This document shows positions 10,896 to 43,552 of a stretch of 64,000 bases of DNA, piece by piece. The DNA lies in IMG/VR virus record IMGVR_UViG_3300044796_000401; one strand, given 5' to 3'. Position numbers and translations under genes: made by a program. The notes below the pieces were generated by a model that worked only from the letters and a program-made list of their open reading frames with translations, was not told where the DNA came from and searched no databases. Position 1 is the stretch's first letter. Every line of letters begins with the position of its first letter. Source of the DNA: a virus. Its lineage: Duplodnaviria > Caudoviricetes.

Positions 10896-10969
10896 AGGGG
10901 AGTCGTCCAACGGTAGGACTCTGGTCTCCAAAACCAGGTATGGCGATTCAAATTCGTCCTCCCCTGCCA
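10896..10969 (+). tRNA. tRNA-Trp(CCA)
   Basis: AGGGGAG/CTCCCCT, CTGGT-CTCCAAA-ACCAG, CCA. Confidence 0.92.
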
Positions 10970-11010
10970 AAGTTTAAGCCGTGTCCGTGAGTTAGCCGGG
11001 CACGCAGGGT

Positions 11011-11086
11011 GTGGCCGTGGCAACTATTGGCATGTTGCACCTGTCTGTGGAACAGGGTCTTGTGGGTTCAATTCCCACCGGTCACC
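11011..11086 (+). tRNA. tRNA-His(GTG)
   Basis: GTGGCCG/CGGTCAC, CCTGT-CTGTGGA-ACAGG, C73; no encoded G-1 or CCA. Confidence 0.8.
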
Positions 11087-11131
11087 CTTTCGTGACTTCC
11101 TGAGTATTAAGTAGGGTGCTCAGGAGGGTTC

Positions 11132-11974
11132 ATGATGTTTTACACGGTGTACAAGACGGTTAATTTGCTGAACGGTGAGTACTACTTCGGGGTTCACAAG
11201 ACTGAGAATCCCAAGGATGTTTATCTCGGTTCCGGGACATACATCAAGCGAGCCGTTGCCAAGTGCGGGGAACAGAACTTCCGCAAGGAAGTGCTGTTCA
11301 CCTATCTCGATGCGAAGTCGGCGTTCGGTAAGGAGGACGAACTGATTCAAAGTTATCGCGGACGTGATTCGCTGTGTAAGAATCTGAGAAAGGGCGGTAG
11401 CGGTGGGTTTGATTGGATCAATGAGAAGGGATTAAACGGCACCAAAGTAGCTAGGGCGGCTGGGGTAGAAAAAAGACGGAGAGATACTTTTCGTAAACGA
11501 TGGGAGAATGATCCAGCGTTCAGGAAAAAGCTTTCGAAAAACGGACGAAGAGCCCTAAAATGTGTTTCCGATGAAACCAGAAAAAGGAATCTTCTTTTAG
11601 GCGCGAAAGCTTGGAAAGGACAACACCACACTAAAGAGTTTCGAGAACGAAAAAGCCAAGAACAACGCGGAATTAACAATTCCCAATTTGGCTGCCGATG
11701 GATGAGAAAGGAAGGGGTTGTACGGAAGGTTGCTCGAACTGAAGTTGAGAGGGCTTTAACTGAGGGATGGTTATTTGGAAAAGTCGCACCTAAAGTACGA
11801 CAAAAACAAACTAGAAAACCAACATTAAACGAGCAAGCCCCCAAAGGAACCCGTTGGTGTTCTAGTCACAAACAATTTTTGGATGTTCAATTGTTTCACG
11901 GGAAATATAAATATTGTAAGGCATGCCGAAGAACTCAAAGAATTATTCGGCGTCAGCGGTTAGGACATTGGTAA
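11132..11974 (+). CDS. GIY-YIG homing endonuclease
   Basis: YTVYKTVNLLNGEYYFGVHKT..YLGSG, NLRKGGSGG, NUMOD3-like WKGQHHTKE, C-terminal Zn ribbon. Confidence 0.88.
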   Translation: MMFYTVYKTVNLLNGEYYFGVHKTENPKDVYLGSGTYIKRAVAKCGEQNFRKEVLFTYLDAKSAFGKEDELIQSYRGRDSLCKNLRKGGSGGFDWINEKGLNGTKVARAAGVEKRRRDTFRKRWENDPAFRKKLSKNGRRALKCVSDETRKRNLLLGAKAWKGQHHTKEFRERKSQEQRGINNSQFGCRWMRKEGVVRKVARTEVERALTEGWLFGKVAPKVRQKQTRKPTLNEQAPKGTRWCSSHKQFLDVQLFHGKYKYCKACRRTQRIIRRQRLGHW

Positions 11975-11981
11975 AAGTTTT

Positions 11982-12058
11982 GCGCCCGTAGCTCAATGGA
12001 TCAGAGCGTTCGGCTACGAACCGAAAGGCTGCGAGTTCGAGTCCCGCCGGGCGCACCA
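11982..12058 (+). tRNA. tRNA-Arg(ACG)
   Basis: GCGCCCG/CGGGCGC, TTCGG-CTACGAA-CCGAA, CCA. Confidence 0.93.
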
Positions 12059-12079
12059 GATTTTTGAAGAATGGGTTTT

Positions 12080-12157
12080 GCGCCTGTAGCTCAGTTGGAG
12101 CAGAGCGTTCGCCTCCGAAGCGAAAGGTCGCGAGTTCGAGTCTCGCTAGGCGCACCA
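12080..12157 (+). tRNA. tRNA-Arg(CCG)
   Basis: GCGCCTG/TAGGCGC, TTCGC-CTCCGAA-GCGAA, CCA. Confidence 0.93.
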
Positions 12158-12167
12158 GATTTGAGTT

Positions 12168-12254
12168 CGGCCCTGTCGGCAACTGGACAGTCGGCTTCGC
12201 TACGAACGCCCAGCCCTTCGGGGAATGCAGGTTCGAGTCCTGTCACCCGTTCCA
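12168..12254 (+). pseudogene. tRNA-like element: class II-like 3' half, no matching 5' acceptor strand
   Basis: CCC-TTCG-GGG variable arm, GCAGG-TTCGAGT-CCTGT T arm, CACCCGT-T-CCA; no complementary 5' strand found upstream. Confidence 0.5.
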
Positions 12255-12258
12255 GTTT

Positions 12259-12334
12259 TGGGAAGTGGCGCAATTGGGAGCGCAGCGGGTTCTGAACCCG
12301 AAGGTTGTTGGTTCGAACCCAACCTTCCCAACCA
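12259..12334 (+). tRNA. tRNA-Gln(CTG)
   Basis: TGGGAAG/CTTCCCA, loop TTCTGAA, CCA. Confidence 0.88.
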
Positions 12335-12339
12335 AGTTT

Positions 12340-12414
12340 TGGGGTGTGGTCTAACGGTAAGGCACCGCACTGTTAATGCGGACGATGAAGGTTCGAGTCC
12401 TTCTGCCCCAGCCA
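12340..12414 (+). tRNA. tRNA-Asn(GTT)
   Basis: TGGGGTG/TGCCCCA, CCGCA-CTGTTAA-TGCGG, CCA. Confidence 0.9.
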
Positions 12415-12432
12415 AGTTTTGAAGGGAGACTG

Positions 12433-12579
12433 ATGGGAACAGCTATTGCGGTGATTGCGAGTTTTATCTTGGGCGCTGTCATGGACCACTTCTTGGAAGC
12501 GCGAAGCGCCAAGGCCGTAACGACGGCGATCAAGCATTTGGAAGATAGCGTTGTGGCGGAGATACGGAAGTTGCGGTAA
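12433..12579 (+). CDS. Small membrane protein inside tRNA array
   Basis: GGGAG RBS; MGTAIAVIASFILGAVMDHF... Confidence 0.55.
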   Translation: MGTAIAVIASFILGAVMDHFLEARSAKAVTTAIKHLEDSVVAEIRKLR

Positions 12580-12590
12580 AAAGTTTCAGT

Positions 12591-12665
12591 TCCCCGTTAG
12601 CTCAGTGGCAGAGCGTTCGGCTGTTAACCGAAGTGTCGGGAGTTCGAATCTCTCACGGGGAGCCA
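12591..12665 (+). tRNA. tRNA-Asn(GTT), second copy
   Basis: TCCCCGT/ACGGGGA, TTCGG-CTGTTAA-CCGAA, CCA. Confidence 0.93.
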
Positions 12666-12671
12666 AGATTT

Positions 12672-12746
12672 GGGTCTGTAATTCAGCGGCAGAAAACCTC
12701 GCCCTTAACGAGGGGGCCGAGAGTTCGAGTCTCTCCAGACCCACCA
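12672..12746 (+). tRNA. tRNA-Lys(CTT) with C33
   Basis: GGGTCTG/CAGACCC, CCTCG-CCCTTAA-CGAGG, CCA. Confidence 0.87.
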
Positions 12747-12747
12747 A

Positions 12748-13275
12748 ATGCAGACTCTTATTATGAATTCAGTATTAAGAGTCATGGAACAGGAAAAAGT
12801 ATGCTGCCGATGTAAGGCTCCTAAACCAGTTGACGCTTTTAACTGGAAAAATCGAGCTAAAGGAATTCGACAGAGTTTTTGTCGGACGTGTAAAAAGGAG
12901 TATCAAGGCACTTGGTATAAAAATCACAGAGACGAGCAACTAGCACGAATCCTAGCTAGAAAAACTCGTATTGTGAAAGAAAACCAAGATCGCATTTGGG
13001 TTTATTTGAAGGAACATCCATGCGTTGGCTGTCCTGAGAATGATCCGGTTGTTTTAGATTTTGACCATGTACGTGGGGCTAAAAGAGTGGAAATCTCTAC
13101 GATGTTAGCCCACGGATGTGCATGGAAAAGCATCTTGAAAGAGATAGCTAAATGCGAAGTTCGCTGTAGAAATTGCCATCATCGCCGACATGCGGTGGAA
13201 CTTGGCTCTTGGCGAGTAACGCAAGCTTCACAAGATTGCGCTCATAGCTCAACTGGGAGAGCAGGAGACTCTTAA
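12748..13275 (+). CDS. HNH homing endonuclease (start uncertain; ATG 12763 or 12784 also possible)
   Basis: CCRC..CRTC; HPCVGC...LDFDHVRG...CEVRCRNCH. Confidence 0.85.
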   Translation: MQTLIMNSVLRVMEQEKVCCRCKAPKPVDAFNWKNRAKGIRQSFCRTCKKEYQGTWYKNHRDEQLARILARKTRIVKENQDRIWVYLKEHPCVGCPENDPVVLDFDHVRGAKRVEISTMLAHGCAWKSILKEIAKCEVRCRNCHHRRHAVELGSWRVTQASQDCAHSSTGRAGDS

Positions 13276-13313
13276 TCTCAAGGTTGCAGGTTCGACCCCT
13301 GCTGGGCGCACCA
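13238..13313 (+). tRNA. tRNA-Lys(CTT), canonical
   Basis: GCGCTCA/TGGGCGC, loop CTCTTAA, CCA. Confidence 0.92.
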
Positions 13314-13362
13314 GATTAAACTGGAAGGACTTTTGAGTTCTTCTGGTAGAAGGGAAGTTGTT

Positions 13363-13941
13363 ATGGGAACTGACACACTAGTGCTTGACATGACGGGAAC
13401 CCCCATCGGGTTCGTCGGCTGGCAGAAAGCCGTGACCATGGTGTGGAAAGATCGTGCTATGGTCATGGATGAAGATTCGGAAAAAATTTTGAGGTCGCCT
13501 TCGTTCGAGATGGGCATGCCCACGGTCATCCGTGCGAGGAACTGGGTGCGCCGCCGTCGGAAGACCGCGGTCCCGTTCTCCCGCCGCAACGTTGCGGTCA
13601 GGGACAACAGCGAGTGCCAGTACTGCGGCAAGCTGCTTCACCTGCCGGAGTACACGCTGGATCACGTGGTCCCGAGGGTCCAGGGCGGATCGAGCAACTG
13701 GAAGAACCTCGTGCTGGCATGCATCAGGTGCAACAAGCACAAGTCCGGGAGCACCCCGGAACAGGCCGGAATGCGTTTGCGCAGGATGCCGTTTGAGCCG
13801 AAGCCGGACGACCCGAAGTACAACTTCAAGCTTCGGATCAAGAAGATGCATCCGAGTTGGCGGCCGTATGTGGACGGCGGCTGGCTGTATGCCGAGAAGG
13901 CCGCCTACGCGTATTGGAACGTGGAACTCTCGGAGAAATAG
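13363..13941 (+). CDS. HNH endonuclease (McrA/HNH_5-like)
   Basis: VLDM..P...WQKAV...PTVIR...PFSRRNVAVRDNSECQYCG...TLDHVVPRVQGG..WKNLVLAC..CN..K. Confidence 0.88.
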   Translation: MGTDTLVLDMTGTPIGFVGWQKAVTMVWKDRAMVMDEDSEKILRSPSFEMGMPTVIRARNWVRRRRKTAVPFSRRNVAVRDNSECQYCGKLLHLPEYTLDHVVPRVQGGSSNWKNLVLACIRCNKHKSGSTPEQAGMRLRRMPFEPKPDDPKYNFKLRIKKMHPSWRPYVDGGWLYAEKAAYAYWNVELSEK

Positions 13942-13944
13942 GTT

Positions 13945-14179
13945 CCACGGGAGATCGGCTCAACGGAAGGTCAGGATTGAGCCGGACCATCGTGGTCGCC
14001 GCCAGGCGATGCCGGTGGCAGGACGGGAGAGGGCGATGTGGAGGCCCTCTCCCGTACGGAATTCGGTCGGTAGCTACGGCTCCCGGCGATAGCCCGAGGC
14101 GCTTAGTACAGGCGTTCGGGCGGGGAAGCTCTCTTGTCCCCCATCCTGCGGTTGAGAGTCCGTGGCCACGGATCGCAGG
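13945..14179 (+). ncRNA. Unidentified highly structured RNA candidate inside tRNA array 2
   Basis: Perfect 12-bp stem 14023-14034/14044-14055, 7-bp stem 13957-13963/13977-13983, CCTGCG/CGCAGG 14145-14179. Confidence 0.45.
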
Positions 14180-14185
14180 AAGCAC

Positions 14186-14261
14186 GGCCCCATAGTTCAA
14201 ACGGACAGAACGCTAGTTTCCTAAACTTGAAATCCCGGTTCGAGTCCGGGTGGGGCCGCCA
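14186..14261 (+). tRNA. tRNA-Arg(CCT)
   Basis: GGCCCCA/TGGGGCC, loop TTCCTAA, CCA. Confidence 0.9.
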
Positions 14262-14280
14262 GATTTTGATTGAAGGATGT

Positions 14281-14355
14281 TGCTTTGTCGTCTAATCGGC
14301 AGGACACAGGTCTCTGGAACCTGTTATAATGGTTCGAGTCCATTCAAAGCAGCCA
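14281..14355 (+). tRNA. tRNA-Gln(CTG), second copy
   Basis: TGCTTTG/CAAAGCA, CAGGT-CTCTGGA-ACCTG, CCA. Confidence 0.9.
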
Positions 14356-14621
14356 ATTTTATGACGAAGGCGAAGTCGCTCAAACAAGTCGTTGCAACCG
14401 CCCGCAAGAACGGGAAGATGAGGATGTCGCAGGCGTATTTCGACCTGATGCTTGAGGGGATGCAGATGCCCGAAGAGCTCGGTAAAGCAGCGGTAGAGGC
14501 GGCAAAAAGGAAGAAGTGATGCAGGCTCTCGCACAACTCGGTGTCGCAACGGGATTCGTCGTGATCCTTGTCGGGTTGCTCTTTCTTCCCAACCTCAGAC
14601 GAAAACGTTGATCCCACCTCC

Positions 14622-14698
14622 GCTCCCGTCGTCCAATGGAATAAGGACGCTAGTCTTCTAAACTAGGAATATGGGTTCAAGTCCCATCGGGAGCCCCA
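14622..14698 (+). tRNA. tRNA-Arg(TCT)
   Basis: GCTCCCG/CGGGAGC, CTAGT-CTTCTAA-ACTAG, CCA. Confidence 0.92.
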
Positions 14699-14708
14699 AT
14701 CTTTCCGT

Positions 14709-14784
14709 GGGCTGCTAATTCAATTGGCTAGAAGCGCAGACCTTTAATCTGTTAATTTCGGTTCGAGTCCGGAGCGGCCCACCA
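14709..14784 (+). tRNA. tRNA-Lys(TTT) with C33
   Basis: GGGCTGC/GCGGCCC, GCAGA-CCTTTAA-TCTGT, CCA. Confidence 0.87.
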
Positions 14785-28746: not shown

Positions 28747-28759
28747 AGTGATCCTAACT

Positions 28760-30967
28760 ATGAACACTTCGACAAATCCAGCAATCGCCCACAGTGCCCA
28801 ACCAAAGGAGGGCATTCCAGAGCAGTCGTATGCGAACCACATCTCCAACGTGGTGTCCAACACGACTAGCAAGTGCGAGGACATGCTGAAGTACCATATC
28901 GCTGGTGCAAGGTTTTTGTCTTCTGCGAAGGCTGCCAGCGAATTTCACGACCTCGGCAAGCTCGAACCGGAAAACCAAGAAATCCTCCAAGGCCGCAAGA
29001 AGGGGAAGCTGATCAATCACGTAGACGCAGGTGTGGCACACCTTGTTGCGAACGGGCTTTGGGAGGCGGCCATAGCGGTAAATGCCCATCATTGGGGCTT
29101 GCCAGATTTGGTTGAGGAAGAAGAGAAGGGGCGTCGAAACGCCTGCCTGCGGGACGAAACAATTTTTGAACATACGAATCGCAGCATGGAGGACTTGATT
29201 AAGCGCCACGGCGAGAACGGGTTTTCTGTGTCTCTCCAGCCGGGTAACAACCCCCACTTGTCCGGCTTGGAGCGTCGGCTGCTGCTCTCTTGCCTCGTAG
29301 ACGCCGACCACTCCGACACCGGGCACAATTACCCCCAATACTTTCCTCCGCAAGTACCCGAATGCGGGTGGGAAGAGCGGCTCGCGGCGCTGAATGCCTA
29401 CGTCAATGGCTTGCCGAAAGGCTCCAAGAGCGACAAATTGCGCAGGGAGATCGCCGATGCTTGCCGCAGGGCCGAACTGGTGCCGCTCAGCACGCTGGAC
29501 AGCGCGGTAGGCACGGGCAAGACGTTATCGGCGATGGCGTACCTTCTGCGGCTGGCCATCCGGTTCAACCTCCGGCACATCTTCGTCGTGCTGCCGTACT
29601 GCAACATCATCCGCCAATCGGTAAAGGAGTATCGAAAGGCGCTGACCTTGCCCGGCGAAGACCCGAAATCGGTGGTGGCGGAGCACCACCACCTGATCGA
29701 ATTCGAACCCGTGCAGCAGCGGCATTTGACCACGCTTTGGAACGCCCCCATCATCGTCACCACGGCGGTGCAATTCTTCGAGACCCTGACCGCCGCCAAG
29801 ACCAGCCGCCTGCGCAAGCTGCACGAATTGCCGGGTTCGGCAGTATTTATTGATGAGGCCCACGCCGCCATGCCTGTCAAACTCTGGCCGTTCATGTTCG
29901 ATCAGATGAGGGAACTTGCCGAAGCATGGTCGTGCAAGTTCGTGCTGGGCTCCGGATCGTTGACCAAGTTTTGGGAGAGCCAGCGCATCATGGGCGAAGG
30001 AGTCGCCTTGCCGGACATTCCTGACCTAGTGCCTAACGAAATCAGGCGCGAGAGCGCGGAAGCGGAAAAAGAACGAACCGTCCTCAGGACGAAAAAGCAA
30101 GCCATGAGCTTGGATGATTTGACGCAATGGCTTATGGGCTTCAACGGCGCACGGCTCGTAGTCATGAACACCCTCAAGAACGCCGCCAAGCTCGCCCAAG
30201 CGCTCAGGGCTCAGGGGGTACAGGCATTGCACGTCTCCACCGCCCTCGCCCCGGCAGACCGCGAAAAAGTGCTGGAACAGGTCGAGAAGCGGCTCAACAA
30301 TGACCGAAACTTTGTCTTGGTCGGCACAAGCTGCATCGAAGCCGGATGGAACGTTTCGTTCGATGTCGGCTTTCGGGAGCGCAGCAGCCTCGTGAGCCTT
30401 GAGCAGATTCGCGGGCGAGTCAAGCGGCACGGAGGCGACGGCCCCCCGGCCGAGGTTTGGGATTTCAAGGCTGACGAGGACGACGATTCCTTTAGCCTCA
30501 ACCCCGAGTTTGCGAATAGCTCAGTCGTGCTAGGAAGCATGTTTGAAGATGGAAGCTTCGAGCAGGGGATGCACGCCGCAGACTTGGTGTTCCGAGCCTT
30601 GGAGGAAGAATGGAAATTGCAGCCCAAAGACGCGTGGGTGGCAACTATCCGTGAGGTGGAGAAAAGTGGGTGTTATAACAGCAGGAACCCCGAGAAAATA
30701 TTCACTGTAAGCCGAATGGCTCGGCTGATCACGCAGGAAACCCTGACCGTTGTGACCGATCCCGTCCTCGCCAAAAAGATGAAGGATGGGAAGCAGGTCA
30801 CTCCGCAGGAAGTGCAGCGGCACAGCGTCCAGATTTGGGAGCAGAAATTCGAGAAGCTGCATTTGGAGAAAAAGCTGGCTCTGATTGCCGACGACGTTTA
30901 CGAGTGGACGCTGGGTTATGACCCGGATTTTCTGGGCGTGATGGAGGGATTGCTGCCTCTCATTTAG
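28760..30967 (+). CDS. cas3: Cas3 HD nuclease-helicase (compact)
   Basis: AHS..Y..H, FHDLGK, H.DAG, AHH, SCLVDADHSD; AVGTGKT, IDEAH, GSGS, VMNT, GTSCIEAG, GRVKRHG. Confidence 0.92.
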   Translation: MNTSTNPAIAHSAQPKEGIPEQSYANHISNVVSNTTSKCEDMLKYHIAGARFLSSAKAASEFHDLGKLEPENQEILQGRKKGKLINHVDAGVAHLVANGLWEAAIAVNAHHWGLPDLVEEEEKGRRNACLRDETIFEHTNRSMEDLIKRHGENGFSVSLQPGNNPHLSGLERRLLLSCLVDADHSDTGHNYPQYFPPQVPECGWEERLAALNAYVNGLPKGSKSDKLRREIADACRRAELVPLSTLDSAVGTGKTLSAMAYLLRLAIRFNLRHIFVVLPYCNIIRQSVKEYRKALTLPGEDPKSVVAEHHHLIEFEPVQQRHLTTLWNAPIIVTTAVQFFETLTAAKTSRLRKLHELPGSAVFIDEAHAAMPVKLWPFMFDQMRELAEAWSCKFVLGSGSLTKFWESQRIMGEGVALPDIPDLVPNEIRRESAEAEKERTVLRTKKQAMSLDDLTQWLMGFNGARLVVMNTLKNAAKLAQALRAQGVQALHVSTALAPADREKVLEQVEKRLNNDRNFVLVGTSCIEAGWNVSFDVGFRERSSLVSLEQIRGRVKRHGGDGPPAEVWDFKADEDDDSFSLNPEFANSSVVLGSMFEDGSFEQGMHAADLVFRALEEEWKLQPKDAWVATIREVEKSGCYNSRNPEKIFTVSRMARLITQETLTVVTDPVLAKKMKDGKQVTPQEVQRHSVQIWEQKFEKLHLEKKLALIADDVYEWTLGYDPDFLGVMEGLLPLI

Positions 30968-30970
30968 GAC

Positions 30971-30999
30971 TTGACAGGGGTTTTTATTCATGTTATGCT
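30971..30999 (+). promoter_or_regulatory. cas5-cas8-cas7 promoter
   Basis: TTGACA-N17-TATGCT; GGAGG RBS before ATG 31022. Confidence 0.7.
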
Positions 31000-31021
31000 G
31001 TCTTAACGGATGGAGGATCGC

Positions 31022-31624
31022 ATGAAGGATGAAAAGATTTACGAGGTTGCACTGGAGATCGCAGGACCGATGGCGCAATTCACGCGCCCCGACTCCGGCA
31101 ACTCATTTGTGTCCTATCCAGTCCCGACTTTCGCTGCGGCAGCGGGCATTTTCAGGAACGTCGCATGGTGGAAGGACGTTTACATCGAGCCGATACGGGT
31201 GGAAATTTGCACGCCTGTCAAATTCATGCGGCTGACGCAGAATTATCATGGGCCGTTCAAGAAGCCCGGCAATAACAATTTCCAGCTTAGCATGCTGGCG
31301 CTTGTGGATGTCTGCTACAAACTTTACGGACGCACCCGCAGGCTCGGCGACGGATTCACGCCGGGATACAACCCCCTGCATGCCTTGCAAGAGCAGTTCA
31401 GCCGCCGCCTGAAGCAGGGCAAGCTGTTCCGCACCCCGTGCCTCGGCCTCTCGGAATGCACGCCGAGCTACTTCGGTCCGCTGCGGGATTCAACCTTTGC
31501 CCAGAAAGACATCAACTTGACGATTTCCAGCATGCTTTTCCGCACATTCAACGACGCCGGGGAATACGCGCCGGAATTCCGGCAGAACGTGAAGATCAAG
31601 GACGGAGTGCTGATTTATGCTTAA
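31022..31624 (+). CDS. cas5: Cas5 (type I-C-like)
   Basis: EIAGPMAQFTRP...SYPVPT.AAA.GIF, L.DV.Y, F.RRL.QG..FRTPCLG. Confidence 0.88.
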   Translation: MKDEKIYEVALEIAGPMAQFTRPDSGNSFVSYPVPTFAAAAGIFRNVAWWKDVYIEPIRVEICTPVKFMRLTQNYHGPFKKPGNNNFQLSMLALVDVCYKLYGRTRRLGDGFTPGYNPLHALQEQFSRRLKQGKLFRTPCLGLSECTPSYFGPLRDSTFAQKDINLTISSMLFRTFNDAGEYAPEFRQNVKIKDGVLIYA

Positions 31625-33503
31625 CGAAATCCATGCCCTCGCTGAAGCGCTGAAAGCCCGCAACGTGCTTGTTCCGGAGCGCCACCCTTGGATACAAAGC
31701 GTGGGCAAGAGCAAACCTATGTTCCGAGTCTTTCTCTCCCCCGCAGGCATCGTCAAATCCGTTGAGGAAATATCCCCAGAAGCTCGCAGCGGCATGTGCT
31801 TGATCCGCAGGGGCAACCACTTTTCGTTTCCCGTAACGAACCTGACGCTCAGTGACGACCCCAAGACGATCAAGAAGAACGCCGCGCAGCTTGGGCGGCT
31901 GCTGGAATTCGCCGCCGAACTCGGCAAGGTGTTCGACAAGGACAACGCAAAGCTCCTCGCCACGACGTTGCTGATCGAACGATTGAAAAAGGTCGAGCCG
32001 TCTGACCTTCTCAACCAGATCATGGTTAAAATCAAGTCTGACAAGGAAGAGGACATCACCGTGGTGCTGGACATCGTTCACACCGAGAAAGCGGCCTACT
32101 TGGTCAACGACCCCAAGGCAGCGGAGGAATGGAACGCCGCTCTTCTCGCTTGCGCCAAGCCCGAAGGGGCGGAAAAAGTATGCTCCCTGAGCGGGGTTTC
32201 GGCGGCAACGAGTTCCGACCCCATCGGTCCGGTCAACCTCCCGGCGCTCGGCAAGACATCCCTTTATTCGCGGTTCGGCGAGGTCCCCTGCCTTGAGCGC
32301 TACGGTCGATCCGACCGGGATGGGTTCTTGGTTTCCGACGCTAGCATCGCGGAAGCTCGGGACGCCATCCAGTTTCTTGCTACGGGGGACGAACGCAAGA
32401 ATCGGACGTATGCCGCGATCGGCAAAGATTCGCTGCTGATCGCCTATCTCGACGAGCGCCCCGAACTGGTTGCGGATTATGTTTCCCCGTTCCGGGACAT
32501 CGACGAAGCCGACATCAGCCAGTACGAAGAGCGCTGCTCCAAACTGTTCCAGATGCTCCACGCAAAGAAGGTCAGCGGCCTCGACCATTTGAGCGTCTTG
32601 GTGATCGAGAAGGTGAACAAAGGAACCAAGCGGGTCGTTTTGGACGAGCACCTCACGGTCGATGCCATCCGCAAGGCAGTTCAAGACTGGCGCGACGGCT
32701 TGACCAATTGCCCGACCGTCGAAACTTTTATTCCGCAGAAAAAGGGAGAGCCCGCCAAGTGTGTCAAGAACGAGCCGTTTTCCCCGACCTGGTTCAGCCG
32801 CAGCTTCGGCAAGCCGTGGATTCGGGGCGGGGACGAGAACACCAAGATTCGCGGGCTGTCGATCCCCGAAGCCTATTCGCTTTTCCTGCATGGCGGAACG
32901 CGGGCGGCGGAGCAAGCGCACACCCTGCTCCAGCGGTATGTCGGCTTGGTCAAGTCCCTCCTGTACGGTTTCGGGAAGGGTGAACAGGGCTTCAAGGTAA
33001 TGGCTCGGCAGGAAGCGCTTCGGCAGGAAGCGCTTCGGCAAGAGGCGCTTGTTGCGGTGTCGATTTTGGGGTTGTTGCTCTACAAACAGGGACGGTTGAA
33101 GGAGGAATACATGCGGGACATTTATTTTGCGATTGGGCAGGGCTGCAAGGCAGCCGACGGCTTGCACAAGCGGTATTGCGCAGGAGTTCGGGACGGCGAC
33201 GTGCCGTCGCAACTGCTGGGCAACTCCTCGCTGACGGCCATCATCAGGAACCCGGCCAAGGGCCTGAAGATGCTGCTCGGCGACAGCCGCCTGCGGGTCT
33301 ATATGGGCTGGGTGGAGCAGAACGGCGACGGCCTCGGCATCGGGTTCAAGCGCCAGCTTGAAGCCGTAGCCGAAGCGATTTCCGGGCAGGACCTGCCGAA
33401 GCGCTTGACCCCCGAGCAGGAAGCGGAATTGATGCTGGGCTGGCTTGCCCCCCTTCCGAAGCTGGCGAACAGCGGCTCGGACAAGACAGTTGCACAGCAG
33501 TAG
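31617..33503 (+). CDS. cas8c: Cas8c-like large subunit, probably with internal Cas11 start at 33111
   Basis: Position between cas5 and cas7; CSLSG, LYSRF..VPCL.RYG; AAGGAGG RBS before in-frame ATG 33111. Confidence 0.75.
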   Translation: MLNEIHALAEALKARNVLVPERHPWIQSVGKSKPMFRVFLSPAGIVKSVEEISPEARSGMCLIRRGNHFSFPVTNLTLSDDPKTIKKNAAQLGRLLEFAAELGKVFDKDNAKLLATTLLIERLKKVEPSDLLNQIMVKIKSDKEEDITVVLDIVHTEKAAYLVNDPKAAEEWNAALLACAKPEGAEKVCSLSGVSAATSSDPIGPVNLPALGKTSLYSRFGEVPCLERYGRSDRDGFLVSDASIAEARDAIQFLATGDERKNRTYAAIGKDSLLIAYLDERPELVADYVSPFRDIDEADISQYEERCSKLFQMLHAKKVSGLDHLSVLVIEKVNKGTKRVVLDEHLTVDAIRKAVQDWRDGLTNCPTVETFIPQKKGEPAKCVKNEPFSPTWFSRSFGKPWIRGGDENTKIRGLSIPEAYSLFLHGGTRAAEQAHTLLQRYVGLVKSLLYGFGKGEQGFKVMARQEALRQEALRQEALVAVSILGLLLYKQGRLKEEYMRDIYFAIGQGCKAADGLHKRYCAGVRDGDVPSQLLGNSSLTAIIRNPAKGLKMLLGDSRLRVYMGWVEQNGDGLGIGFKRQLEAVAEAISGQDLPKRLTPEQEAELMLGWLAPLPKLANSGSDKTVAQQ

Positions 33504-33614
33504 CGGTGTCGCCCGGTGCAATATGGCAAGTGGAAACACTTCCGGCTTCGGGCGTGAATTGAAGAAGGAAGCAAATTTGGGTGGCGACCTACCGCCGATA
33601 CATGAAAGGCTTTT

Positions 33615-34520
33615 GTGAAGAACGCGAAGGAACTGAAAGAACTGAACCGCGCAACCCTGCTGCTCGTGGTTGAGGCGGTGAACTCCGGGATCAACCAAGA
33701 CCCGGACAACGAGAGCGACCCGCGCACCCAGCCGGATGGGCGCGGGCTGTGCACTCCCGTGTCATTCAAGGCGAAGCTCCGCACGCTGGTGGCCGACAAG
33801 GAATTCAACCTCTGGAAGGAACTGTCCAAGAACCTTTCGTTGGCGGACAAGGAATTCGACGTGCTTGAGCGCCGGGACACGGTGCTGAAAGAAATCTTCG
33901 ATATGACGCCGGAAGCGTTCAAGAGCAAGTATTGGGATGCCCGGTTGTTCGGCAACACCGCGCTTGAAGGCAAGGACTCGGGCGGTGAGAAGGCGGAAAA
34001 GGACCGCTTCGTCCGCACCGGGGTCGTGCAGTTCGGGCTGGGCGTCAGCGTTTGCCCGGTGGACATCATCCGCCTGACGACCACTGGCCAGCGCGCCGTG
34101 CAGGCGGGCAAGAGCCGCGCCATGGCTGCGCTGGGATACAGGGTCGTCAAGCACGGGCTGTACGTGATGCCGGGGTATGTCAACCCCGCCGTAGCCTCGA
34201 AGAGCGGCTGCACCGCGACCGACGTGGAACTCATGAAGCGCGTCATTCCCTACGCCTATTCGCACACTACCTCCTATGTCCGCAGCGAAATCAACATCCT
34301 GCACGCATGGTACGTGGAGCACAAGTCGCCCCTCGGGTCGTGCCCCGACTGGAAGATCATCGAGGCCCTCACCCCGAAGCGGATCGGCGACCCGGAGACG
34401 CCGAGCCAGTCCCGCAAGGACTACGAAATCCCTTCCGCGCTGCCGGAAGAACTCCGCAAGCAGGTCAAGTCGGCCGTGGACCTGATGGAGTACATGGCAC
34501 AAGCGACCGACGCGAAGTAA
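33615..34520 (+). CDS. cas7: Cas7 (Csd2-like)
   Basis: VVEAVNSGINQDPDNESDPR....G..TPVSFKAKLR, WDARLFG, TGVVQFG...S, YRVVKHGLY. Confidence 0.9.
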   Translation: MKNAKELKELNRATLLLVVEAVNSGINQDPDNESDPRTQPDGRGLCTPVSFKAKLRTLVADKEFNLWKELSKNLSLADKEFDVLERRDTVLKEIFDMTPEAFKSKYWDARLFGNTALEGKDSGGEKAEKDRFVRTGVVQFGLGVSVCPVDIIRLTTTGQRAVQAGKSRAMAALGYRVVKHGLYVMPGYVNPAVASKSGCTATDVELMKRVIPYAYSHTTSYVRSEINILHAWYVEHKSPLGSCPDWKIIEALTPKRIGDPETPSQSRKDYEIPSALPEELRKQVKSAVDLMEYMAQATDAK

Positions 34521-34576
34521 GGATGCTCGCAAACGGCGGGGCAGCACGTTTATTTGCATAGACTTGCTGCCCTGGA

Positions 34577-35303
34577 CTTGTCAGGTACTTGAAACTATCT
34601 GTGAATTGAAACATGCAGACAAGGGGCTTGGAAGCCGCGTGGAATATCTTGTCAGGTACTTGAAACTATCTGTGAATTGAAACCAAGTCACTTGCACGGG
34701 CTGCACAAACGGTTCCACCTTGTCAGGTACTTGAAACTATCTGTGAATTGAAACGTGAAAAACCTGCGCTCCCAGCTTCCGATTCCCGCTTGTCAGGTAC
34801 TTGAAACTATCTGTGAATTGAAACCAAGACACAAGGCACAGTGACCGTTCAGTCTTGCTCTTGTCAGGTACTTGAAACTATCTGTGAATTGAAACTGAGC
34901 CCCCATCGGGCGGCGTACCACGGGAAGGCCTTGTCAGGTACTTGAAACTATCTGTGAATTGAAACACGTTCTGCGCCACGTAGGATGCGGCCTTGTCGGC
35001 CTTGTCAGGTACTTGAAACTATCTGTGAATTGAAACATTTCCGTTCCGGGAATTTGCGACATCATGCCTGGCCTTGTCAGGTACTTGAAACTATCTGTGA
35101 ATTGAAACATTACCCGCAATGGGGCGGTGACCCCCGCATCGACTTGTCAGGTGCTTAAGACACCTGTGAATTGAAACATGTTATGCTGGTCTTACAACAG
35201 TTAGCCGCACTGCAAGGTGCGTGAATTGAAACAATCCCGAGGCGAATGGCAGGAAGCGGATCAAAGCGTAATGTTTGTCAGGTGCTTAAAACACCTGTGA
35301 ATT
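34577..35303 (+). CRISPR. CRISPR array: 8 identical 36-nt repeats, 3 divergent distal repeats, 10 spacers
   Basis: CTTGTCAGGTACTTGAAACTATCTGTGAATTGAAAC at 34577, 34648, 34719, 34789, 34860, 34930, 35001, 35073; variants at 35143, ~35213, ~35274; spacers 34-36 nt in the conserved part. Confidence 0.97.
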
Positions 35304-39741: not shown

Positions 39742-40587
39742 ATGAAAAATACTTTGGTTCTGAACGATTGGCATGTGGGTAGCCCATTTGGGTTGCAACA
39801 CCCGAACTATGTGAACGTGGACGGCCAGCACATCGACCTGAGCCACGATTCTAAACAAGACTATCTCTATGACAACTTTGAAGACAAGCTGGAAAGCATC
39901 CGGCGCGACCACGAAATCCACTACATCCAATACATGGGCGATATTATCGACGGTCTTCCGGCGAAAGGCGATTTCACGGAATCCGCACTTCCGCGGATAG
40001 AAGATCAAATTCGCTGTGCACGGATGCTGCTTGAAGAGGTCCGCACCCGGTTCCCGAAAGCGATCTGGAATCCGTTTGTTTTTGGCACGAAGAACCACGA
40101 GAAACCCGAGGATACTCGCCGCCTCGCCATGGATTTCATCCGCACCAAATGCCGCATGACTTACAACATGCGGGTAGTTGAAGACGGGGCTGACGATGTT
40201 TTGGTCCGGTTCCACCACGAGGTCGGTTTCAGCGGCGCTGTGGCCGGACGTTCGGGTTCCATGGAACGGGAGATCGTCCAAGGCATGCTCGCCTACGCAG
40301 AAGGCTCCACGGAACGCTTCGATGCCGAGGTGCGGGGCCACGTCCACTACCACGCCCGCGTCTTGCAGCGGAACATTTGGCTGGTGACCGCTCCGAGTTT
40401 TCAAATCCAAAATCTCTACGGCACGAAACCCACGCCCAACCGTTTCCCGTCTCTGGGTTTCTTGGTTGTACATACGGACGGGCGGATGCGGCGGCACGGT
40501 CAAAATCCGGTGGATTTCACCGCCTACACCTTTAATCACCCCAAGACCAAGGCGACCACGCCGGAGGAAGAGAATGGCATTTCCTAA
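39742..40587 (+). CDS. Calcineurin-like metallophosphoesterase
   Basis: NDWHVG, MGDIIDG, GTKNHE, FHH, GHVH. Confidence 0.85.
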   Translation: MKNTLVLNDWHVGSPFGLQHPNYVNVDGQHIDLSHDSKQDYLYDNFEDKLESIRRDHEIHYIQYMGDIIDGLPAKGDFTESALPRIEDQIRCARMLLEEVRTRFPKAIWNPFVFGTKNHEKPEDTRRLAMDFIRTKCRMTYNMRVVEDGADDVLVRFHHEVGFSGAVAGRSGSMEREIVQGMLAYAEGSTERFDAEVRGHVHYHARVLQRNIWLVTAPSFQIQNLYGTKPTPNRFPSLGFLVVHTDGRMRRHGQNPVDFTAYTFNHPKTKATTPEEENGIS

Positions 40588-40847: not shown

Positions 40848-41423
40848 ATGAAATACATAGTTGAAGTAAAGGGGATGGAAGGCTCCAGCCTTCTGTTCGG
40901 CAAGCACATCGAGTCCCCGAAACGAGATGGAGAAAACGAAGGAGCCTATGAAGACCGCGTATGGCGGGAACGCCTACACGTCGATTCCGAGGGCTTCGTT
41001 GTTTTCCCGGTCGAGGGTTTCAAGCGCTCGCTTGAAACCGGAGCCAAGGGAAAGAAAACCGGAAACGGCAGGCAGACTCTCACCGACTCGTTCCTCAAGG
41101 CGGTCGTGAGCAACAATGCCTTTGCCCAGATTCTCACCCCTAAGGGCAAGCCGATCAAGGCGGATAGCGTGGAACACCTCTGCTTGTTCGTTCCCAGCAA
41201 GGGCGAACGGAACGGCCCCAAGCGGGTCGCCAAGAACTTCCCGTGCATCCCTGAGTGGAAGGCGGCATTTCCCTTGACCGTGCTTCTCGACGACCTCATC
41301 ACCATGGACGCCATCAAGCGGGTTGTTCCCGATGCTGGGCTGCTTGAGGGCATCGGCTCCATGCGTGCCGGGAACGGCAACAATAACGGACGATACGAAC
41401 TCGTTTCCATCCGCAAGGCGTAA
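40848..41423 (+). CDS. Stand-alone Cas7/RAMP-like protein (191 aa)
   Basis: beta1 with G.SLLFG; GFVVFPVEGFKRSL resembles the RAMP P.IPGSSLKG helix; C-terminal Gly-rich loop AGLLEGIGSMRAGNGNNNGRY. Confidence 0.7.
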   Translation: MKYIVEVKGMEGSSLLFGKHIESPKRDGENEGAYEDRVWRERLHVDSEGFVVFPVEGFKRSLETGAKGKKTGNGRQTLTDSFLKAVVSNNAFAQILTPKGKPIKADSVEHLCLFVPSKGERNGPKRVAKNFPCIPEWKAAFPLTVLLDDLITMDAIKRVVPDAGLLEGIGSMRAGNGNNNGRYELVSIRKA

Positions 41424-42236
41424 ATCTGACGAGACCAGAAGCAGGGACTTTCGAGCCTCTGCTCCTGCTCTCAAGGCAGGAATCCGATCCGATCTGATGG
41501 GATACGACATGACAAGATGCGACTGGAACCGATATGATGCGACATGCTGAGATTAGAGGCAAGGGGCTTCGGCCCTTTGCTCCTGCTCTCAAAGGCAGGA
41601 CTTAGACCTGACCCGATAAAATACGATGTGATATGACCCGGTGGGACGTGACAAGACCCGACACGTTGAGATTCGAGGCAAGGGGCTTCGGCCTTTTGCT
41701 CCTGCTCTCAAGGCAGGCTGTGATTAGATAAGATATGATGGGACGTGACGGGACGTAACTTGACGCGCCAAGCTGAGATTCGAAGCAAGGGGCTTCGGCC
41801 CTTTGCTCCTGCTCTCAAGGCAGGCTGAGATAAGATGCGACGTAACAGGGTGTGATGTGACGTGATTTGTTAAGACGTGGCGGGACATGGCGAGACCAGA
41901 GGCAAGGGGCTTCGGCCCTTTGCTCCTGCTCTCAAAGCAGGAATCGTTAAGATAAGAATAGATGCGGCGCGATGCGATTCGATTGGATTGGAAGGGATTG
42001 GTTCTGATAGGTTGAGTTCAGAAGCAAGGGGCTTCGGCTCTTTGCTCCTGCTCTCAAAGGCAGGATGCGATTTGATTTGATTCGATTGGATTGGACAGGA
42101 TTGGACACGATGGGACCAGACATGTTGAGACCTGAAGCAAGGGCTTTCGAGCCTTTGCTCCTGCTCTCACGGATGGGATGCGATGTGATGGGACATGACG
42201 TGATGGGACTGGATAAGACGCGCTGAGACGAGACAC
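41424..42236 (+). repeat. 7-unit array: conserved ~45-50 nt double-hairpin block alternating with 13-16 in-phase GAY-NN pentamers
   Basis: Block GARGCAAGGGGC-TTCG-GCCYTTTGCTCCTGCTCTCAA(A)GGCAGG with GARGC at 41438, 41556, 41675, 41782, 41899, 42021, 42134; tracts unique in NN. Confidence 0.95.
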
Positions 42237-42237
42237 G

Positions 42238-42272
42238 AAAAAGGAGCCCAGAAATGGGCTCTTTTTTGTTTT
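42238..42272 (+). terminator. Intrinsic terminator closing the pentamer array
   Basis: GAGCCCA (42244-42250) / TGGGCTC (42255-42261) then TTTTTTGTTTT. Confidence 0.85.
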
Positions 42273-42517
42273 CCCAGTATTGTATCCCGAAGCGGAGACG
42301 CACAACGACGGATGCAGTGCGTGTCGATCCTCCATCGCCGGGAAGGAAAGATGATAAGCCTGAGATTCAAGTACTTGTTCCTCATCTGCCCCAACGGGTG
42401 CTACGCACGGGAGTTGCGCGCCATCGGCGGTAGGGCGGCATGCGCCAAATGCGGTTATTGGCTGCTCGTGCTCACGATTGACGACCTGCGGAAGAACGGT
42501 CCCCGGAAGGGGAAGAT

Positions 42518-42868
42518 ATGGACGAAGGTGAATCCGCTGTGGACCGGGGGAAAGTGCGAATAGCGTTTGCGGGGGACAGGCGCATGTCGCGCCAAAAACG
42601 GTCCATCAAAAACCGCAGAGTAAGCTGGCACGCCATCACCGTGCCGATGGGCGGGCGGACCTCAAAGGTTATCTACGTTACTGACAAGCAGCTTGCCCGG
42701 CTCAACGCCGTCCCGGTCGGCAAGGAAGTGTTCCTGAGCAACGCCTACTGCATGATCGGCAGCGGCTGGGTGATCCGCACCGTGGACGGGTTGCAACACA
42801 TGCCGTTCCCGAGCGGCGCGAGCAGGGACGAGGACGTTTGCCTGCTGGAAAATATGATGAAGGATTAG
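42518..42868 (+). CDS. Hypothetical protein (start uncertain)
   Basis: Phage-like codon usage in 3' part. Confidence 0.5.
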   Translation: MDEGESAVDRGKVRIAFAGDRRMSRQKRSIKNRRVSWHAITVPMGGRTSKVIYVTDKQLARLNAVPVGKEVFLSNAYCMIGSGWVIRTVDGLQHMPFPSGASRDEDVCLLENMMKD

Positions 42869-43000: not shown

Positions 43001-43552
43001 ATGAAAGACATAGTAGCAGTTCATGAAGCGGGTCATGCGGTCGTTGCCGCTTTATTGCATTTGCCGTTCGAATACGTTGAAATCTATGACGAAGCCGTTC
43101 CCCTTGAAGATGGATATGTAGGCGGACAAGTTTGCTTGAAATTTTCCCATCCGAAGACCGTCAGATGTTTTGTTAGGAGAGGAGAGGAGTATATTCCCAG
43201 AACAGAAGATGATCTTCGCAAGGCATACGCCAAAAAAGCCAAAAAATACATCGTTATGTATTTTGCCGGAATGGCAGCGGTTCGTCACTTCCCGGCGGTA
43301 TCGGAGGCGGAAATTTTGGAGGGGGGAACCAAGGATTTGGAGCAGATCAGGGATTGGAAAGCCGATGCGGGGCTTACGGACTTGGACGTGGAGCAATGCA
43401 AGCGGAAAGCGGAATCCTTGGTCCACAAACACTTTTTGGGCATTGGATGGGTTGCAAAGCTTCTGGCGGAGAAAAAACGGCTTACAAGCCGGGAAGTTCG
43501 GAAGAACATTTTGATGTGTTGGAACACGAGGAATTCGGCACGCTGGAGTTGA
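43001..43552 (+). CDS. Peptidase M41 (FtsH protease domain)-like protein
   Basis: VAVHEAGHAVVA, YFAGMAA, G..DL..I. Confidence 0.78.
   Translation: MKDIVAVHEAGHAVVAALLHLPFEYVEIYDEAVPLEDGYVGGQVCLKFSHPKTVRCFVRRGEEYIPRTEDDLRKAYAKKAKKYIVMYFAGMAAVRHFPAVSEAEILEGGTKDLEQIRDWKADAGLTDLDVEQCKRKAESLVHKHFLGIGWVAKLLAEKKRLTSREVRKNILMCWNTRNSARWS

Follow-up and report, generated by a model that had tools for sequence, protein, structure and literature searches.

A probable VIPR guide-RNA array with a variant GAY scaffold in a large peat and pond phage

What is encoded by a run of pentamers, each made of a nearly constant triplet and two changing bases, that fills the DNA directly behind a small gene of a large phage? 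An earlier note, made from the sequence alone, had suggested that the changing dinucleotides (NN) of these pentamers spell gapped targets, with the gap on the codon wobble position. We consider it very likely that positions 41481-42236 (+ strand) of the window, by which we mean the whole 64-kb stretch analysed, hold an array of guide RNAs that belongs to a VIPR (Viral Interference Programmable Repeat) system of a large phage of peat and ponds. VIPR is a CRISPR-related phage system that was first described in 2026 (bioRxiv 10.64898/2026.04.26.720920, 10.64898/2026.04.26.720927, 10.64898/2026.10.15.759431). The gapped wobble code has thus been in print since April 2026, and the locus is a further VIPR example with the variant scaffold GAY. 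It is distinctive in this triplet and the matching change in the G-loop of the protein, in its seven guides in a row, in a candidate metallophosphoesterase, and in its carrier, a jumbo phage with a type I-C CRISPR-Cas locus. With it, the family gains a member from an uncultivated jumbo phage of peat and ponds, whose habitat and phage type lie outside those of the E. coli and Pseudomonas models.

A pentamer array beside a Vipr homologue

The array region (about 41424-42270, + strand) begins right after the stop codon of a 191-codon gene and consists of seven units of 107-122 nt each. Seven tracts of 10-14 GAY-NN pentamers each lie in it at 41481-42236 (+), in one unbroken 5-nt register. Among the 101 pentamers, position 1 is G in 96 (95%), position 2 is A in 82 (81%) and position 3 is C or T in 97 (96%), whereas the two variable positions are near-even in composition (A/C/G/T 26/13/41/21 at position 4 and 26/26/21/28 at position 5). 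A scan for 5-nt-periodic GAY or GGY on both strands of the whole 64 kb returned these seven tracts alone, all on the + strand; given this uniqueness and the composition of the pentamers, chance is excluded as the source of the observation. The features of the region are as follows, the guide tracts having been delimited by splitting the register and extracting the NN pairs.

40848-41423, + strand: vipr gene, 191 aa (P0001), predicted stand-alone RAMP/Cas7-like protein (profile, AF2, Foldseek)
41424-41480, + strand: leading tail-like element (GAGA box, hairpin, CCUGC-UCUCAAG-GCAGG) directly after the vipr stop, with no tract before it (sequence, folds)
41481-41545, + strand: guide tract of putative vrRNA 1, 13 GAY-NN units
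41546-41599, + strand: tail 1, with GAGA box, hairpin of 9-10 bp (UUCG loop) and pyrimidine box UCUCA predicted to pair with GAGA (folds, covariation)
41600-41664, + strand: guide tract of putative vrRNA 2, 13 units
41665-41717, + strand: tail 2 (folds)
41718-41772, + strand: guide tract of putative vrRNA 3, 11 units
41773-41824, + strand: tail 3 (folds)
41825-41889, + strand: guide tract of putative vrRNA 4, 13 units, with partial likeness to tract 3
41890-41940, + strand: tail 4 (alignment of tails)
41941-42010, + strand: guide tract of putative vrRNA 5, 14 units, several scaffolds degenerate
42011-42063, + strand: tail 5 (alignment of tails)
42064-42123, + strand: guide tract of putative vrRNA 6, 12 units, with a TC-TG-TG-nG-TG core in common with tract 5
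42124-42171, + strand: tail 6, with a variant hairpin loop (folds)
42172-42221, + strand: guide tract of putative vrRNA 7, 10 units
42222-42268, + strand: GAGA box and intrinsic terminator (stem 42244-42261, then a T run) in place of a tail of vrRNA 7 (sequence, fold)

The NN strings that we extracted independently were letter-for-letter identical to the seven (T1-T7) of the earlier note. The note was also right to leave two pentamers off the end of each tract (three in the case of T7): the dropped pentamers hold the invariant GAGA box, which is predicted to pair into the structured 3' tail. Runs of NN pairs are common to guides 3 and 4 (41718-41889) and to guides 5 and 6 (41941-42123), and it seems that guides either arise by unit duplication and divergence or target variants of one site. 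Two strain variants, 41624 C>T and 41633 A>G (runs X13 and X18), are located in tract 2, each of them on an NN position, and no differences besides these were present among four other runs compared; with a probability of about 0.16 that two sites would do so by chance, their placement is only suggestive of micro-evolution of the guides.

The structured element of each unit is made up of the GAGA box, a 9-10 bp hairpin with a UUCG loop, and a CCUGC-UCUCAAG-GCAGG element. Single-sequence folds gave a strong tail hairpin (z about -3) and predicted that the GAGA box, which is the last two pentamers of each tract, pairs with the UCUC(A) box 3' of the hairpin. Between the window and two related loci from other metagenomes (L004 and L001, see below), changes in one arm of the hairpin are fully compensated in the other, while in L001 the GAGA:UCUC(A) pairing is kept solely by one-sided C-to-U changes that yield G-U pairs. 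The tail may fold either as a pseudoknot with the second small hairpin or as one extended stem. The leading element at 41424-41480 may be a boundary, a processing site or a stabiliser of the mRNA 3' end. The tail motif had no match in IMG/VR and the array none in INPHARED by blastn, and an Rfam scan of the window returned tRNAs only.

The protein encoded directly upstream, P0001, had no match in Pfam, NCBIfam or PADLOC and none when searched in IMG/VR; it matches phrog_4652, a PHROG of unknown function (E 2e-5). An exhaustive HMMER search gathered relatives in 669 representative clusters, nearly all of 185-215 aa. A profile built from 116 homologues matched a single solved chain, PDB 36pp, 'SUSP1 Vipr protein' (E 2.4e-12, residues 35-183), in an alignment that runs through the thumb and the glycine-rich G-loop; the pairwise comparison of P0001 with SUSP1 Vipr is weak (E 0.2), so that the significance comes from the profile only. 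It was the title of this PDB entry that led us to the VIPR preprints of 2026. An alignment-based AlphaFold (AF2) model of P0001 reached a pLDDT of 94.6 and a pTM of 0.88, and its best Foldseek matches were type VII Cas7 and Csm3 (type III). Judged by profile and predicted structure, P0001 is a homologue of the characterised Vipr and, like it, a minimal RAMP with RRM core, glycine-rich loop and thumb.

In the published account, Vipr is an early-branching RAMP, encoded mostly by phages, that co-purifies with vrRNAs of ~100 nt composed of 9-16 GGY-NN pentamers and a 3' pseudoknot tail (2026.04.26.720920/.720927, 2026.10.15.759431). One Vipr protomer binds each pentamer, hiding GGY and presenting NN, and the NN pairs read dsDNA by a 'one-nucleotide skip rule' in which one base is skipped per two; the skipped base is overwhelmingly the codon wobble, so that synonymous mutations give no escape. 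In this way, satellites, prophages or rival phages are silenced at the level of transcription. Specificity for DNA is set by the NN bases, which have been reprogrammed, degenerate internal units are usual in vrRNAs, and the arrays are without self-targets (2026.04.26.720920/.720927, 2026.10.15.759431).

The closest system is the type II VIPR of Escherichia phage SUSP1 and of a Pseudomonas fulva prophage, which consists of Vipr, vap1 and vrRNAs (PDB 36pp). The two have in common a stand-alone small RAMP gene flanked by arrays of RNAs of about 100 nt, 107-122 nt per unit in the window as against ~100 nt for the vrRNAs in print. Each RNA in the window has 10-14 pentamers of constant triplet plus NN and a predicted structured 3' tail, as in type II; both systems are phage-borne and have no self-target, and the arginine of the pyrimidine pocket is kept (R179 of SUSP1, R173 here). 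In contrast to SUSP1, the triplet is GAY instead of GGY, seven guides stand in one downstream array instead of one upstream and three downstream, and the tail is a UUCG hairpin flanked by the GAGA/UCUC pairing, unrelated in sequence. No vap1 is recognisable here, and the candidate accessory gene is a metallophosphoesterase. At the level of sequence, the locus thus very probably belongs to the VIPR family, from which its mechanism would follow by homology.

The backbone proteins of class 1 CRISPR systems (Cas7/Csm3/Cmr4, type VII Cas7) have the same fold of RRM core, G-loop and thumb; VIPR and the class 1 backbone also have in common one protomer per RNA repeat unit and a thumb that periodically breaks the guide-target duplex. 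They differ in period and geometry: VIPR has a 5-nt period, with three guide bases hidden and one target base skipped, whereas class 1 has 6 nt and one base flipped. Moreover, VIPR lacks a repeat-spacer array, the Cas6/Cas5 handle, large and small subunits and adaptation genes, its guides being hard-wired in the genome. We rejected the reading of the locus as a CRISPR array, as its variable parts are pentamers with a fixed triplet and there are no free spacers between identical repeats of ~28-37 nt.

The linkage of such arrays to vipr, in the flanking intergenic DNA, is conserved among relatives. The two nearest homologues of P0001 (44-45% identity), from other metagenomes, have GAY-NN arrays adjoining the gene. 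In one of these loci (L004), four GAC-NN tracts lie upstream of the vipr homologue, and the separators between them are tails with the same second element as in the window and a hairpin whose arms differ yet still pair; in the other (L001), the gene is flanked on either side by GAT-NN tracts. An 85-kb IMG/VR phage contig (L014, IMGVR_UViG_3300005077_000014) has at least nine GAC-NN vrRNAs on both sides of vipr (L014:3710-5866), and 5-nt-periodic arrays likewise adjoin the vipr homologue in L026, L028, L029, L030 and L031. In L014, one tract of 24 units includes an internal 4-unit repeat, and the tails are A/U-rich and unrelated to those of the window. For the window locus itself, the repeat anatomy, the family and fold of the protein, the linkage of gene and array, and the occurrence in many samples are established.

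Scaffold triplet and G-loop across the family

According to the preprints, D177, W178 and the thumb residue R138 of SUSP1 Vipr contact the two guanines of GGY, and perturbation of GGY abolished silencing, GGY>GAY being among the constructs tested (2026.04.26.720920/.720927, 2026.10.15.759431). In our HMM alignment, these three residues align to S171, M172 and F131 of P0001, and R179, the pyrimidine-pocket arginine, is conserved as R173. Since a disrupted GGY silences nothing in SUSP1 and the scaffold of the present locus is GAY, P0001 must read a different triplet.

We surveyed scaffold and G-loop in 16 loci of the Vipr family. Where the scaffold is GGY (SUSP1, L009, L011, L018), AGY (L013), or A[A/G]Y or AAT (L015, L017), the G-loop reads D/R-aromatic-R-P. 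GAY scaffolds are present in the window, L001, L004, L014, L029 and L030, and probably as GAT in L032, where the periodicity is weak; other scaffolds without G at position 2 are GAA (L031), GCC/GAC (L026) and GTY (L028). Among these loci without G at scaffold position 2, the first position of the G-loop is S, A, Q or V and the second is mostly Met or Leu. The first G-loop position splits the scaffold classes cleanly (9/9 vs 0/7), a split that is confounded by phylogeny.

The rule that an aromatic residue means G at position 2 was broken by L030 (S-F-R-A with GAC) and by L017 (R-W-R-P with AAT), and a weaker correlation was therefore put in its place. A scaffold with G, mixed or A-rich position 2 tends to go with a charged residue followed by an aromatic one in the G-loop (D/R-W/F-R-P), and a scaffold with no G at position 2 with a residue that is small or uncharged and, in most cases, precedes Met or Leu (S/A-M/L-R-A/V). 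We tentatively propose, as a possibility rather than a probability, that the constant triplet of VIPR follows a protein-encoded specificity code. If the correlation were causal, GAY-type and GGY-type systems would be orthogonal: an element could neither make use of the guides of a rival nor serve them as a decoy, and it would be possible to design programmable VIPR tools that work independently of one another.

The alternative scaffolds named in the available preprint text are NNNGG, YNNNG and NNNNG only, and the same text permits 'a related consensus' besides the canonical GGY (2026.04.26.720920/.720927, 2026.10.15.759431). As all three named scaffolds retain the second G, the GAY class may, with regard to that text, be undescribed. 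The scaffold is in any case far more labile in the Vipr family than the GGY consensus suggests, and the GAY locus and its relatives with GAC, GAA, GCC and GTY provide a natural series for how Vipr reads its triplet and for the insulation between systems. The non-GAY arrays lie at L031:319-560 and 1162-1205 (GAA, with a purine at position 3), L028:59-100 and 1087-1150 (GTY), and L026:1100-1400 (GCC/GAC).

Proposed action, targets and rival explanations

The + strand would give one transcript region that runs to the terminator near 42244-42268 and contains seven vrRNAs, each a tract of 10-14 pentamers followed by a structured tail. On the model of the solved SUSP1 complex, a homologue, one Vipr protomer would bind each pentamer, burying G-A-Y and presenting the two variable bases, and the NN pairs would jointly base-pair with a DNA strand, with one base skipped after every two. 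Once bound, the complex would shut off transcription in a competing phage, satellite or prophage. Assembly of the filament, the one-base skip, the wobble alignment, DNA silencing and the class of target would all be carried over to the locus from the VIPR family by analogy.

Natural targets were sought with exact one-base-skip patterns of 9-11 units from five guides in IMG/VR, JGI metagenome contigs and GTDB genomes, with chance levels estimated from collection size only. These exact scans gave 0-3 loci for each of the five guides, approximately the number expected by chance, and none was credible; likewise, each pattern with 18 fixed bases had 0-2 independent hits in IMG/VR, about as collection size predicts. 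For guide 1, nine NN pairs found two independent sequences in IMG/VR (19-20/26), one out of frame and the other in a 97-aa ORF with the 5' units unmatched; 11 NN pairs found none in the JGI metagenomes, and a search allowing up to 3 mismatches found none in 251 Acidobacteriota genomes, a host phylum that is a guess. Ten NN pairs of guide 2 found a non-coding site and a gene for a Bacteroidota T9SS surface (secreted) protein, where extension was at chance level. Guide 3 found one sequence (20/22, GC 0.44) with the skip on codon position 1, and exact scans with guides 4 and 6 found none.

The only full-length match was that of guide 7, 20/20 in a lambda-like portal gene (L023), where the skip falls on codon position 1; this phage is present in gut and wastewater runs and not in peat or pond runs. 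Guide 7 hit the GTDB genomes once, where chance predicts about one hit; the site lies in the housekeeping gene Ppx/GppA of a Blastocatellia MAG. The hit loci have a GC content of 0.43-0.46 vs 0.55 for the window phage, and the unscanned units matched at chance level. The hits are thus at odds with a genuine target in habitat, in GC content or through their place in a housekeeping gene, and most of them lie outside the wobble register.

Searches within the window at skips of 0-3, compared with 50 shuffles, found no self-targets beyond those of shuffled guides, in line with what is published for VIPR, and guides of all loci gave no cross-targets among the window and the related loci. In a codon-register likelihood that compared NN composition with the ORFs of the phage itself, only the position-2-skip register was disfavoured (about -15 bits), and wobble skip and position-1 skip were indistinguishable. 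The proposal of gapped targets with the gap on the wobble position hence coincides with the published mechanism of the VIPR family, while at the locus itself it meets with hits at chance level only; these hits show no preference for the wobble register, and two of the three independent ones in real genes skip codon position 1. That such guides would be blind to synonymous escape is likewise published for the family and would apply here by homology. The peptide-like strings obtained by reading the NN pairs as NNx codons do not count as evidence, and the caveat attached to them, that any NNx string translates, stands.

The VIPR explanation has to be weighed against readings that dispense with part or all of it. 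A VIPR-like ribonucleoprotein with another rule, skipping 0, 2 or 3 bases or binding mainly RNA rather than dsDNA, would accommodate the differences from SUSP1 in the scaffold triplet and in the G-loop residues that hold it, as well as the failure of the one-base-skip scans to give anything convincing; in addition, the one-base rule in print comes from tests on type II GGY systems, and SUSP1 filaments are also able to pair with ssRNA (2026.04.26.720920/.720927, 2026.10.15.759431). However, those scans were exact-match, few and not aimed at the phage's own community, the 5-nt RNA period and the skip-setting thumb and helical-bundle elements are conserved in the model, and VIPR types III and V gave hits with at least 80% NN match under the same one-base rule (2026.04.26.720920/.720927, 2026.10.15.759431). 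We regard another rule as unlikely. Non-functional repeat DNA, or a decaying array beside a hitch-hiking gene, could explain why some scaffolds are degenerate, for example in tracts 4 and 5, a trait that is described as usual for vrRNAs. The register, however, runs on without a break for ~800 nt, pairing in the tails is preserved by compensatory changes, the intact vipr ORF has the invariant residues of its family, and the stretch recurs with hardly any change in runs of 13 studies (peat, pond and viral metagenomes), all of which makes decay barely credible.

From anatomy, our first reading had been a TRAP-like or sponge RNA, and it was dropped once the neighbouring protein turned out to be a Vipr homologue with a RAMP fold. 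The TRAP-binding trp leader RNAs of Bacillus carry 11 (G/U)AG triplets at 2-3 nt spacing, one per protein subunit, and in the same way the triplets of the window recur with 2-nt spacers. In a scaffold or sponge RNA of this kind, or of the CsrB manner, GAY would load an oligomeric protein and the NN would be mere spacers, which agrees with the triplet spacing and with the empty target searches. Yet the fold of the adjacent protein is unrelated to that of TRAP, which forms a ring and not a helical filament, and a scan of neighbouring genes turned up nothing TRAP-like. The spacers between TRAP triplets are uninformative, unlike the NN bases of the VIPR family with their role in DNA specificity; here, the seven tracts keep the scaffold and differ at NN, and the strain differences fall on NN, a pattern of guides and not of spacers. 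Such an RNA is in our view very improbable. Against the VIPR explanation count the first structured element, which has no preceding tract, and the last tract, which has a terminator for a tail, as do the lack of a natural-target match and the GAY scaffold. We nevertheless favour a VIPR guide array as the explanation of the locus.

The carrier phage and neighbouring genes

The window holds, besides phage-type genes, 17 tRNA genes (Rfam) in two clusters at 364-1564 and 10896-14781, and the gene neighbouring the array recurs on contigs as long as 269,646 nt. This length (~270 kb) and the 17 tRNA genes together point to a jumbo phage. One peat metatranscriptome library yielded a contig that covers 41202-41811 and so takes in the 3' end of vipr and the array as far as vrRNA 3; it gives a weak hint of transcription, with DNA carry-over being possible. 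Upstream of vipr lies one further gene of possible relevance to the system.

39742-40587, + strand: candidate accessory (vap-like) calcineurin-like metallophosphoesterase, 281 aa (P0002; motifs, weak Pfam Metallophos match)

The motifs DxH, GDxxD, NHE and GHxH are readable in P0002, and its neighbours in the Atlas are Metallophos clusters from phages. L004 has a homologue upstream of its vipr gene (E 6e-15), and a Metallophos gene also adjoins the vipr of another relative (P0028). T5orf172/MUG113 and UvrD helicase genes adjoin vipr in L001 and L026. Metallophosphoesterase, T5orf172/MUG113 and UvrD neighbours are thus candidate VIPR accessory genes.

The same phage has a type I-C-like CRISPR-Cas locus at 28748-35303, 6 kb from the VIPR locus, with the following features.

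28748-30967: Cas3
31010-31624: Cas5
31617-33503: 628-aa ORF in the position of cas8c, no Pfam match
33615-34520: Cas7 (Pfam E 5e-42)
34574-35114: CRISPR array of at least 8 repeats at ~71-nt spacing, with degenerate copies to 35303

Neither cas1 nor cas2 was seen, and the repeat of the CRISPR array is unrelated to the VIPR array. The co-occurrence of an ancestral-type (VIPR) and a modern RNA-guided system in one virus bears on the proposal that the RAMPs of CRISPR systems descend from Vipr.

Two ORFs follow the array. A small one of 83 aa (42312-42563), just downstream of it, has two Cys pairs (CPNGC and CAKCG) and looks zinc-ribbon-like; it had no family match and no homologue in the related loci. 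The other, of 183 aa (43001-43552), begins with a HEAGH zinc-metallopeptidase motif and has weak, sub-threshold matches to the Pfam families Peptidase_M41 and M50.
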